Shown here in pieces: positions 24,537 to 39,279 of a DNA stretch of 64,000 nt. This DNA comes from Balanoglossus misakiensis (Eukaryota > Animalia > Hemichordata): NCBI GenBank assembly GCA_040954595.2, contig CM082576.2:17841028-17905027 (forward strand). Reading direction: 5' to 3'. The notes below the pieces were generated by a model that saw nothing but the letters and a program-made list of their open reading frames with translations, did not search any database and had not been told where the DNA came from. Within the stretch, counting starts at the first letter, position 1, and every line of letters begins with the position of its first letter. The position numbers were made by a program, and so were the translations under genes.

Positions 24537-26331
24537 GATGAACACTGAGGCCCTATGCCGTTTCATTGCATGGAGTCATGCTTCTTTTGATCACGAATAA
24601 ACGGAGTGGAGGTGATGGTGATGGTGCACATCGTAATATTGTCGAGATCGATTCGTCATCGGTTGACAAAAACATGAAGCCCTGTCAGTTTTGAGTGATG
24701 ATAATGACTATTTTGGTTGCTGTGTCGTGATGCTTGTCATGACAAGCTAGACTAGCCCGCTAGTCGGTTGGGGAATTTTGGAATCTCAATGCTTTGTGTG
24801 TGTTTGCGGTGATTTTTTGTCTTTATAAATAATCTCAATACTTTTTGTGTGCATGCTTGCCTTGAGCGAGTTTAATTATGGCAGTGAGGCGAGTTTCGAA
24901 TTTGGGACTGAGCTTGTGGTTTCGGCCTACGCATTTCCTAGACACGCGCGCTGAACTTTTTTTACTCCACACACACACATTACATAGGGAGACTCGGAAC
25001 ATTTTTTTAAAATGTATATATTACGAAATAACGAAGCCCATGCATGGACTTGGAGAAAGTCTAATAACAAGCCTAAATTTGAAGGACGTGATGTGATCAT
25101 ACTTTGGACACTTGTCATCGATTGGAAATGGTCACTGGTTTGAATTACCACAAGGAACGACAACACGGTTTTATCCAATTGTCATTTTGAGGGAATAGCA
25201 ACTCGTAACTATATACTCCCGGCCGTCCATTTAACCTAAGGACAAAAAGTCGCGAACTAACCAACCCACGACCCACCTCTTCCTGTGTTCATTGCAGAAC
25301 TTTCATATCGGAAACTTTTTGGTGACAATCCCACAAAAGTTGCAAGATTTCATAACGTTATTATGGTTGTAGAAATGATAACGAGCGGAAGATGAGGCAA
25401 TATCCTTATAGTTAATCGATCAAATAAAAGATTCAGGCTCCTCCTAAATACATGGTTATTGTCAGGGGAAATAATATATACTTGTCACAAAAAACTTAAA
25501 CCTCACTATGACTCCCTGACAAATATTTTGATGTTCTTAAAGCAATTAGGGTCCCTTAACTGAAGGGGTGTTCAGTTGAGGGTCCCCAAGGAATTCTAGC
25601 CCAAACGTACTTCATGGGCTCTGACATGACAGGCCCTCACTGGAACACAGTCGTTCGAGGCGCCCTCTATCGCTCGATAGAGAGCTCACTTCCAGCTTGA
25701 ATATTCTCGCACATCAAATGTGACAATACTTTATTTCTCGCAATTAGATAGCGAGAAAATATTGTTCAGCGACTGGAAGCCAGATTTCTATTTATCGCAG
25801 ATGTAATTTAAGAAAATACATTTATCGCACATTGATGGCGGGGAAAGTGATGTGTCGTTCGATTCTCACCGATAGCGAGGGATATTGAATTTATCGCCAA
25901 ATACTCTCATATCCCCCGTAGTGATAACTGAACCCGTGTTTTCCCCACAGCTGCAGAACTTGTCTCCAGTACATACAGACCTCTCTCTATCGCTATTTGT
26001 AATGTTAGCATGCTTCTAGGCGCTTTATTAACAGGGGGCATCTCCGTGTATGCAGAGGGTGACTGGTGGAAAATACAACTGGCCATAAGCTTACTCAGTC
26101 TTATATATATTCCCTACTACTGGTAAGTATTGTGGTTACATCGAATATTAACACGTGCACTGCCAATGTTCTCATAAATTCATTTATAATATACCTCATG
26201 CTAATACTGTGTCGTGATTCGCCAGAATCCGTCACGTGATGGGAAAATTGAATCGACTATGATTCCCTAGGGAAATAGCAGAAAAAATATAAACCTATGG
26301 AAAGCCACAGCTGTCTTAAGTCCATTGTTAC

Positions 26332-27350
26332 CATTATACGACGCTCATACATCTTTATACAATGTGCATTCATCATTATACGATGCTCATACATCATTAT
26401 ACGCTGTTCGTACATCATTATACGACACTCGTACATCATTATACAATGTGCATATATCATTATACGATGGGCATACAACATTATATGCTGGTCGTACATC
26501 TTTATACAACGCTCATACATGATTATACGCTGCTTGTACATCATTATAGGACACTCGTACATCATTATACAATGTGCATATATCATTATATGCTGGTCGT
26601 ACATCATTATACGACGTTGATACATCATTATACGCTGCTCGTACATCATTATACAACACTCGTACATCATTATACAACGCTCGTACATCATTATACAATG
26701 TGCATATATCATTATACGATGTGCATACAACATTATATGCTGGTCGTACATCTTTATACAATGTGCATACAACATTATACGCTGGTCGTACTTCATTATA
26801 CGATGCTCATACATCACTATACAATGTGCGATCACTATACGCTGTGCATACATCATAAAATGACGCTCATACATCATTATACAATGTACATACATCATTA
26901 TACACTGCCCATACATCATTATACAATGTGCATACAACATTATACGCTGGTCGTACTTCATTATACGATGCTCATACATCACTATACAATGTGCGATCAC
27001 TATACGCTGTGCATACATCATAAAATGACGCTCATACATCATTATACAATGTACATACATAATTATACACTGCCCATACATCATTATACGCTGTGCATAC
27101 AACATTATACGCTGGTCGTACATCATTATACGACGCTCATACATCATTATACAATGTGCATACGCCATCATACGCTGTGCATACATCATTATACGTCGCT
27201 TATTCACCATGATACTATGTGCATACATCATTATGCGCTGTGCATACATTTTTATACGACGCTCATACATCATTATACAATGTTCATACAACATTATATG
27301 CTGGTCGTACATCATTATATGCTGATCATGCACCATGATATGATGCTTGT
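26332..27350. repeat. Left subterminal 21-bp minisatellite array of the IS3EU element
   Basis: Units such as ATACATCATTATACGCTGTGC / ATACATCATTATACAATGTGC repeated for ~1 kb directly inside the TIR. Confidence 0.9.
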
Positions 27351-27507
27351 TCATTACATTACAGCAGAGACACCTTTATTGCAGGCTGTTTGTTAACTGG
27401 TTCCTAACAGTGTATTTACGATAGAGGGCATGTATTCTGATCAGCTGTTTCTATCGGCCATTTTGGATGTCAAGTATTTGATTTGTAAGTCTTCACAATT
27501 TGGCAAA

Positions 27508-28872
27508 ATGGCATCGTCTCCTATGTCCACCATACTGCAGCGACTGAATTTGAGCAACCTTACTGGAGTGTTTGAAAGGGAGAGGATCACTCCAGATATT
27601 GTTGGTAAGCTATCCAGCTGGGAAATGGAGTCCCTTGGAGTGGTTAATCCTGGAGACAGAATGGCTTTGAGCGTGACTTGTACCACCTATGGGATGCAAG
27701 TTCCACCTAAGGTTTGGGAAAGTGGGGGTGCACCACAGTTCATCATTCCCAAAGATATCCTGGAGAACCATTTAGATGAGGATTTTAGCATCTCTGAAAT
27801 AGCATCAATGATAGGAGTTTCAGAAAGTACCATTTACAGAAGAATGCGACAATATGGTCTTAGCAAGATGGACTTCACAGATATATCTGAAAGTAATCTT
27901 GATTCATATGTCATTGAATTGGCACGAGAGTTCCCATACTGTGGAGAGAGAATGCTAACTCACATTTTGAAGAATAGAGCAGGCATTAAAGTCCAGCGGA
28001 TGCGCCTCCGTGACAGTCTTCACAGAATTGACTCAGATGGTGTAGATGCAAGACGAAGGGGTCGTTTACATCGCAGAATATACAATGTTAAAGGACCAAA
28101 TCACTTGTGGCACATTGACACAAACCACAAGTTGATTAGGTGGCATTTTGTGGTAATTGGCGGTATTGATGGTTTTAGCCGTCTGCCAGTCATGCTTCAA
28201 TGTCGGGACAACAACAAGTCAGCTACTCTGTTACAGTGTTTCAAAAGTGCTGTAGGCGAATATGGCGTTCCAAGTAGGGTGCGCTCCGATCAGGGCATGG
28301 AGAATGTTGGCATAGCAGACTACATGATATTAAGCCGTGGGCCTAATAGGGGAAGCATGATCACAGGGAAAAGCGTACACAATCAAAGAATTGAGAGGCT
28401 GTGGAAAGATGTTTTTGAAGGTGTTCTTGCGTTATATTACCAGTTATTTTATTTTATGGAGGAGAAGGGTATTTTAGATATACTGAAGCCAAGCCATATA
28501 GCTGCACTTCACCATGTGTATTTATCTAGAATAAATCATAAATTAGAAATATGGAATAACGTATGGGCCAATCACAGAATGAGGACGACAAGAACATCAC
28601 CTCTGCGCTTATGGGTTTCCGGTCAGTTGCAGAACCCAGTTGGGATTGAGTTAGCTGCTGATGAAGTCACAGAATATGGCGTTACTGGCGTGATTCGTGA
28701 GGATGCTGATGAAGCAGATTCGAGACCTGTGATCGATGCACCATCATTTGAGTTAAATGAAGCCTGTACGGAAGAACTATATCGCACCATTCCACAAACA
28801 TGGACATCCAATAACTATGGTATTGAGAGGTACCTAGATGCACTATCCATAATTAATCATCACCATGATTAA
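27508..28872 (+). CDS. IS3EU transposase: N-terminal SAM-like domain, HTH, integrase-core DDE; single exon, intact (~454 aa; upstream ATG at 27430)
   Basis: SAM-like [78 protein letters not shown] motifs [37 protein letters not shown]. Confidence 0.9.
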
Positions 28873-37953: not shown

Positions 37954-38109
37954 TCTGACTGGGTCAAACACTCAGATCATAAACAAATATGGCGCATGCA
38001 TGTTACGTATTTAAGTATGTTGCGCCCTCTTTGACAGAATTGCGGTTAGGCATAGCATATCATAATGACATGTCCGCATAGTATAAAGCCAAACGCGCGC
38101 CGTATGTTG

Positions 38110-38547
38110 AACGGGCATAGTATCATGGTGAATGAACGACGTATAATGATGTATGCACAGCGTATAATGATGTATGCACATTGTATAAAGGTGTATGAGC
38201 GTCGTATAATGATGTATGGGCAATGTATAATGATGTATTCACAGCGTATAATGATGTATGCACATTGTATAAAGGTGAATGAGCGTCGTATAATGATGTA
38301 TGGGCAATGTATAATGATGTATTCACAGCGTATAATGATGTATGCACATTGTATAAAGGTGTATGAGCGTCGTATAATGATGTATGGGCAATGTATAATG
38401 ATGTATTCACAGCGTATAATGATGTATGCACATTGTATAAAGGTGTATGAGCGTCGTATAATGATGTATGGGCAATGTATAATGATGTATGCACATTTTA
38501 TAAATATGTATGAGCTTCGTATAATGATGTATAAGCGTCGTATAATG
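38110..38547. repeat. Right subterminal 21-bp array (inverted relative to the left array; 63-bp higher-order period)
   Basis: cgtataatgatgtatgcacattgtataaaggtgtatgagcgtcgtataatgatgtatgggcaa-type units running into the right TIR. Confidence 0.9.
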
Positions 38548-39279
38548 GTAACAATGGACTTAAGACAGCTGTGGCTTTCCATATAAACCGGTCAGGTGAC
38601 CAACGTGCATGAGGTTTATTATAAAACACCTATGGCCTGGCCTATATTCGGGCCATAGCAGCTATGGCCCTCATGGTCAGGCAAGAGGTGTTCAATATTA
38701 AATTATTATAGGGGTATATAAACAGGAAAGGTAAACAGAAGGGTGGTCATATCAAAGCTTTGGGTTCTTATTCGTAGAAGATAACCACAACACGCGCGCT
38801 TTCTTGCTGCTACAGGTGACTGTTGGTTTTCAGAATGTTAACAAGGGCTGTGTAACATTGATTTAATTTAGGATAATAGAAGAATCGCAACGATGGTCAA
38901 TACAGAAAGGTTATGACGAGGAAGCAAGAAGAATACTTGAGAAAATGGCAAGATGGAACAAGTCTTCTTATAATGATTTCAGTGACGATAAAATACACCC
39001 AATGGATTATGGGAATGAGGTAATCAATTACAAGTCATTTCAATGACAGAACTGAGACAGTTTTCCATTGTTTGCATATTATTTCTTCTTACAGGTATGA
39101 CTAATTCATTGAATCTTCCAGTGCTAGGCTACTCGTCTGTGAAATGCCATCGATGCGATATTGACCACCTCGCCTTTCAAGTATCAGACATACAATCGCT
39201 AAAATTATATACTTGTCTAGTTACTATGCACTCGTCTTCGATTACTCCACCACACTCGTTAGGAATGCCTGGGAAAATA

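Follow-up and report, generated by a model that had tools for sequence, protein, structure and literature searches.

What does the second gene of an animal IS3EU transposon encode, and on what does its product act? The question is raised by an element of the hemichordate Balanoglossus misakiensis, found in a 64,000-nucleotide stretch of contig CM082576.2 (positions 17,841,028 to 17,905,027 of the forward strand), here called the window, in which a transposase gene and a spliced gene convergent to it lie between one pair of inverted repeats. IS3EU elements carry two protein genes according to the available passages of PMC8232023, and those of PMC11934779 describe the superfamily as largely unexplored. 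We find that the second protein is likely of HECT fold and a putative ubiquitin ligase, as judged from structure models. Comparison of loci identifies its gene as a regular IS3EU family gene that co-diverges with the transposase, and a name can now be given to the second gene that IS3EU transposons of animals carry.

One element with two convergent genes

The element measures 12,288 bp, with ends at 26296 and 38583. The left terminal inverted repeat starts with TATGG and spans 50 nt (26296..26345, plus strand), the right one occupies 38534..38583 on the minus strand, and these outermost 50 nt of both termini are perfectly identical (TATGG...CCATA). The hexamer TAAACC is duplicated at the two flanks (26290..26295 and 38584..38589). 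An inverted paralogous copy of the flanks, present in the same window, carries the empty site (21849..21854, minus strand); there the joined flanks match at 92% across the junction, GGTTTA is found once and the element is absent. A 25-nt end motif is found at two places in the 64-kb window and in none of 100 shuffles. Because the ends match, the target is duplicated and the paralogous site is empty, the element inserted as one 12,288-bp unit, as the initial annotation had proposed for a 12.3-kb mobile unit. It is a complete cut-and-paste IS3EU DNA transposon.

The transposase is encoded by a single intact exon of 454 amino acids (27508..28872, plus strand), with a SAM-like N-terminus, a helix-turn-helix (HTH) and an integrase core (Pfam rva_4, E 1e-76) whose DD34E triad is D204, D261 and E296, 34 residues separating the last two. 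The SAM match, weak in Pfam, is new to this analysis. HHCC zinc families were not found upstream in the transposase among the best 25 of 26 Pfam rows; the HTH and SAM stand there instead. Relatives of the transposase make up 1841 of 7992 scored candidates, those that are named coming from corals and bivalves at 51-61% identity, and a search of viral contigs found none. As far as the available passages go, IS3EU/GingerRoot elements have TA..TA ends with TAYGG..CCRTA inverted repeats (PMC10045372, PMC12730594), a 6-bp duplication and an integrase-like DDE transposase (PMC10045372, PMC6839031, PMC12730594, PMC8232023). The window element has such termini, a 6-bp duplication reduced to a single copy at the empty site, a DDE domain with its first Asp, D204, within the expected 100-300 residues from the start, and two protein genes. 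We assign it to IS3EU because termini, duplication length and two-gene layout agree with these published traits. In the passages on rust IS3EU elements the partner gene likewise lies opposite to the transposase. The partners described in the IS3EU passages are alpha-kinase, TET/JBP and DUF3716 proteins, whereas the partner in the window is HECT-like. The available IS3EU passages mention neither a HECT partner nor a transposase SAM, and one supplement of PMC12730594 yielded no HECT. A literature search found no report of the IS3EU-HECT link; Repbase and Kojima 2019, which lay outside that search, may contain it.

The second gene, on the minus strand, comprises eight exons and 661 codons, with all seven introns GT-AG. 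Homologue mapping yields six exons, and splice signals and frame the two linker exons; support for the splice sites comes from GT-AG, frame and homology. The 661-codon model covers the whole of a profile built from 30 full-length homologues, with a score of 733 bits. Exon 1 (37126..37953) holds a SAM domain (residues 1-60), a ubiquitin-like beta-grasp (about 112-225) and a CCHC finger (C246, C249, H261, C265). Exon 2 (36352..36401), a linker and the least certain exon, is required for the frame, with neither homology nor RNA behind it, and exon 3 (33796..33880), an acidic linker, follows from splice sites and frame without homology. Homologue mapping places the helical extension and N-lobe start in exon 4 (33118..33426), the DYGGPRKEF motif of the N-lobe in exon 5 (32879..33011), and the N-lobe end, hinge and first C-lobe helix in exon 7 (31024..31201). 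Between them lies exon 6 (32051..32193), discussed below. Exon 8 (29922..30181), supported by Pfam and the profile, contains the C-lobe with the PTSDTC motif and a phenylalanine at position -4.

Exon 8 alone exceeds the Pfam HECT cut-off (E 1e-6). In accordance, the model of a homologue, P0129 (predicted local distance difference test, pLDDT, 81.8), presents the two-lobed fold and the large N-lobe subdomain of canonical HECT domains. Its best Foldseek matches (E 1e-11) are HECT domains, all of the matches listed among 107 at E<=0.001 are HECT entries, and it aligns with HUWE1 HECT~Ub (6xz1) over 268 residues (Z 21.7, root-mean-square deviation, rmsd, 3.1). The catalytic Cys is present in 30/30 homologues, in a PTANTC context, and the -4 position is aromatic (F/Y) in 29/30 and F in the window copy. 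Work by Salvat in 2004 is said to have found this aromatic residue necessary for ubiquitin transfer to substrates. Canonical HECTs (HUWE1, Smurf1, UBR5, E6AP, AREL1) share the two-lobed fold, at Z 19-22 in the best rows, and the -4 aromatic; with E6AP and AREL1 the N-lobe's GG-P-R-x-EF motif and the C-lobe's LQFxTG and PTxxTC motifs align as well. Unlike them, the window-type protein has N-terminal SAM, ubiquitin-like and CCHC modules and is transposon-borne.

The model of window exon 1 (pLDDT 86.6) matches tankyrase-1 in its SAM part (Z 9.3, rmsd 2.1, 59 residues) and TBK1 in its ubiquitin-like part (Z 7.9, rmsd 2.3, 80 residues); these Z values are middling, and for SAM the sequence searches agree. 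Tankyrase SAM, among the best SAM matches, is filament-forming according to structure entry titles. The models thus support the HECT fold, the SAM and the beta-grasp block that the initial annotation had read. Of its UBZ-like C2HC finger, the spacing C-x2-C-x11-H-x3-C stands, with C246, C249 and C265 in 60/61 rows and H261 in 61/61; the Pfam matches to the finger are below cut-off in the window and above it in P0001. In UBZ fingers such as that of RAD18 an acidic residue two after the His contacts ubiquitin, and the corresponding position 263 is variable here (Y, E, W, L, K, Q).

The class IV HECTs (G2E3, GL-Metazoa, GL-Bikonta) resemble the window type as fast-evolving animal HECTs, according to the available passages of PMC3673628, in which transposons are not mentioned (0 matches for 'transpos'). 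Of the top 11 fold matches to the short HECT, 7 are to UBR5, the class IV anchor, and a G2E3 cluster is among its ESM Atlas structure neighbours (TM 0.73). G2E3 differs in having three N-terminal PHD/RING-like fingers; in exon 1 and nine homologues PHD/RING families were not found, the domains there being SAM and one C2HC finger, with weak FYVE rows. A chordate cluster combining Neuralized and HECT is a close structural neighbour of the short HECT in the ESM Atlas (TM 0.84).

Is the second gene a constant companion of the transposase? Among 80 transposase loci on metagenome contigs, the 45 with at least 1 kb downstream were counted and 35 shorter ones set aside, L004 among the latter being positive. 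A stricter C-lobe profile, iterated from database homologues as seeds, gives a convergent match at 23/45 loci, none on the same strand and none upstream (0/34). With locus seeds added, a convergent HECT-like gene is found at 35/45, same strand 0, upstream 2/34, a count that is partly circular; two such seeds are HECT by Pfam. Transposase identity among the loci is 38-61%. At 7/27 loci tested both genes lie inside TATGG inverted repeats with perfect 6-bp duplications. Transposase and C-lobe distances are correlated over 20 loci (Mantel r 0.67, p 1e-4), in a test that kin inflate. In the last exon, the proportion of synonymous differences (pS) is 0.59-0.89 vs 0.16-0.42 for replacement differences (pN); synonymous sites are saturated and replacement sites are not, and by this measure the exon is under strong purifying selection. 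One gene architecture is kept across cnidarians, molluscs and the hemichordate. Sampling weighs against too broad a reading of the linkage: the 35 positive loci are spread over 17 record sets, with two related sets supplying 18 of them, and the 7 complete elements all stem from a single set and belong to SAM-less clades.

Clustering at 90% identity groups HECT genes that are scattered over several chromosomes or scaffolds in Hydractinia, Ostrea, Dendronephthya and Pinctada, a pattern that, at more than 90% likeness, suggests transposon copies. The expectation that such elements may underlie expanded G2E3-like annotations is backed indirectly by the dispersed copies in these four animals; the names encountered are 'uncharacterized' or 'HECT'. 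By this evidence, many of the 'HECT domain' genes dispersed in corals, bivalves and other invertebrates may be copies of transposons, with consequences for counts of E3 families.

Three long downstream flanks, those of L023, L028 and L070, yielded no HECT. Downstream of the transposase in L023 (15055-20942) lie a RING and B-box frame and a Pao retrotransposon. In L028, frames of 945 and 604 amino acids without a Pfam match directly follow the transposase (11907-16573, minus strand), and near copies of the L028 transposase carry HECT at that place. The HECT region of L033 holds a 302-amino-acid frame (14171-15076, minus strand) with H-W, D and Q..DCG motifs and no Pfam match at 1e-3; we take these motifs to resemble a Ulp1/SUMO protease.

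A shortened N-lobe and a stop codon

The HECT domain of the window clade is 75-81 residues shorter than canonical ones over the aligned range (306 vs 382 in HUWE1, 299 vs 374 in Smurf1, 269 vs 350 in E6AP). The stretch that separates the LSILQNG helix from the C-lobe accounts for about 70 of the absent residues (profile 479-587 vs E6AP chain 110-288), and the point at which some 75 are lost lies in exon 6, according to the homologue alignment. From LSILQNG to the next conserved helix there are 31-39 residues in 31/31 aligned sequences, and the segment is short in all 58 that could be read by pattern out of 119 database matches. Sister IS3EU clades keep it, at 99-109 residues in seven loci (exon ends set by eye for five), short and long forms being aligned via a common helix (probability 94). 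The P0129 model shows no strands between residues 442 and 566 and no hairpin. In Nedd4-type HECTs the small N-lobe subdomain, helices 6-8 and strands 5-6, hosts the E2 site (available passages of PMC3077247). From position, length and model, the deleted segment is predicted to be this small E2-binding subdomain. Given that this hallmark of canonical HECTs is absent from the window clade, we file the protein as a HECT-like variant. The 'compact HECT' of the initial annotation is compact and two-lobed indeed, and it lacks the region of the E2-binding site. A profile of the sister-clade middle exon found no HECT in PDB sequences, and a profile comparison with L037/L016 (probability 5.8) is too weak to place the deletion. 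A missed exon was rejected as the cause of the short N-lobe, the junction lying inside exon 6 and, in L005, inside one open reading frame. Our literature search found no report of a HECT without the E2-binding subdomain.

The window copy holds a further peculiarity, absent from the initial annotation. A single in-frame TAA at 30165-30167 (codon 581) precedes the Cys of PTSDTC (codon 624) by 43 codons. The catalytic-type motif is therefore in place in exon 8, and the copy as assembled would nonetheless be unable to make the catalytic lobe. Alternative acceptors near the TAA were rejected by eye; the others shift the frame or are without a pyrimidine tract. The TAA would mark either a null copy or an assembly error. 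In one sample, GATC-GATC is read where two X2 contigs join (30166-69), the other two X2 contigs are clipped at 30167, and the X1 contig carries one unlisted difference. The GATC-GATC join looks like a restriction-ligation junction, which needs a G at 30166, that is, a serine codon; this may suggest that other molecules of the sample have a sense codon at the stop position. A 36-nt intron difference indicates at least two versions in that sample, where contig depths are not equivalent to copy numbers.

Intron 7 contains a nested element resembling a miniature inverted-repeat transposable element (30243-30970). Its inverted ends read GGGACCGTTCAGTTTTTACGGC and it is flanked at each end by TAA, a 3-bp duplication as in PIF/Harbinger; part of it is repeated at 50729-50858. 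Between the stop codons of the two genes lies a small hairpin element (29619-29761, GGGGTTATTACA ends), over which contig depth is very high.

Twin SAM domains and the possible target

The SAM of the ligase and its counterpart in the transposase align at a probability of 96.4 (E 1.3e-9). Transposases with a SAM group in a single branch (100, asterisked, in a quick tree of 42 rows of fetched relatives), within which L041 is cut before its N-terminus, and where the partner N-lobe is readable for them, in the window and L005, it is of the short form. Since a SAM domain is common to both proteins, the second protein likely acts on the transposition machinery. Of the three targets that the initial annotation proposed, host silencing factors, chromatin and the transposase, the twin SAM domains would favour the last. 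Just inside the inverted repeats lie arrays of a 21-bp unit, 48.6 copies at the left (26332..27345, plus strand) and 20.6 copies at the right (38116..38547, minus strand), the latter inverted relative to the former. They are likely to serve as transposase binding sites. A 21-bp period at >=0.6 is found in 5/12 SAM-clade vs 3/19 other upstream regions and is shared beyond the SAM clade. Subterminal arrays are general in these elements, with family-specific periods of 12, 14, 22, 24, 28, 33 and 41 bp, read at the ends of L031, L049, L050, L052, L057, L067 and L078.

A question remains, what would such a ligase do? We consider the chances about evenly balanced that it acts on its own transposase complex, probably recruited via the homologous SAM domains. 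The transposase would bind the 21-bp arrays through its HTH and oligomerise through its SAM, and the ligase would join the complex through its own. It would receive its ubiquitin with the usual E2 grip missing, so that E2~ubiquitin would have to be held by an adaptor, by the finger or by the ubiquitin-like domain, and the ligase would mark the transposase or integration-site proteins for removal. Transposase levels would thereby be limited, or the complex dismantled after insertion, and the window copy would rely on sister copies for its ligase. The more specific proposal, that a marine-invertebrate IS3EU clade possesses a minimal HECT active without the E2 wing, which co-assembles with the transposase via twin SAMs on the 21-bp arrays as a self-targeting switch, is tentative and on balance unlikely.

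Several points weigh against action on the transposase complex. The window copy has, besides its stop codon, an Asp where 29/30 homologues have Asn. Because the N-lobe is without the E2-site region, ordinary ligase activity is not to be assumed, and G2E3-type divergent HECT domains are reported to be non-functional in the available passages of PMC3673628. At most fetched IS3EU loci the transposase is without SAM, so SAM is not a family-wide link, and the ubiquitin-like block is the more widely common feature of IS3EU partners. A complex prediction of window transposase and exon-1 protein, run without alignments, scored 0.08 and weighs neither way.

An active ligase might instead be aimed at host defence, removing silencing or chromatin factors and thereby keeping the element expressed or giving it open targets, with the SAM as its anchor to chromatin or to SAM polymers of the host; we regard this as possible but on the unlikely side. 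The alpha-kinase and TET partners of fungal IS3EU elements would fit a host-directed role equally, and transposon-borne TET/JBP genes, including those of fungal IS3EU, have been proposed to counter methylation silencing (available passages of PMC12730594). The fast-changing acidic linker and the finger could bind host proteins, and linkage and conservation are equally well accounted for. Yet the SAM domains of ligase and transposase are clearly homologous and both mark one clade, and a constant partner would more easily explain one architecture in cnidarians, molluscs and a hemichordate. The short segment of the clade, together with the strand-free stretch of the model, has prompted a further reading, doubtful in our view. 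The HECT of this clade would then be no ligase by itself, but would carry ubiquitin, serve as a decoy or form a scaffold, either receiving ubiquitin from another E3 or only binding it at the C-lobe. Against this reading speak the invariant Cys, set in PTANTC, and the -4 aromatic, both of which strong purifying selection maintains. That the gene is a one-off capture of a host G2E3-like gene, now a decaying passenger, is very improbable. The stop codon and the repeats nested in introns would suit it, but gene, place and orientation are alike in loci from the 17 record sets and co-diverge with the transposase, the span of transposase identity excludes a single recent lineage, dispersed copies exist in several animals, and the homologues scanned have no PHD/RING match. 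The recurrence of the convergent gene at 35/45 loci, or 23/45 by the stricter profile, refutes it. The other circumstance that the initial annotation would have taken as refuting, a C-terminal region that neither scores nor folds as HECT, is contradicted by the Pfam match and the P0129 model.

If the transposase complex is indeed the target, a self-bound ligase would open a way to study how transposases of eukaryotes are kept limited, or are removed once integration is done. If the ligase also works without the E2 wing, the clade would supply a natural example of catalysis by a HECT to which E2 is delivered non-canonically. A HECT whose catalytic marks stay under selection although the E2 subdomain is gone provides a direct test of HECT charging.

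Neighbouring sequence

Frames on either side of the element (25932-26126 and 38867-39046) resemble exons of MFS/SLC22-type transporters, the right one matching Sugar_tr at E 0.0085, below cut-off, and the element seems to sit in an intron of a transporter-like gene. An inverted paralogue of these transporter-like flanks lies at about 20289-22454. It adjoins a duplication in direct orientation, about 2 kb long and 90-96% alike (14268-16505 and 22456-25607), and together the duplications read as a locally rearranged gene cluster.

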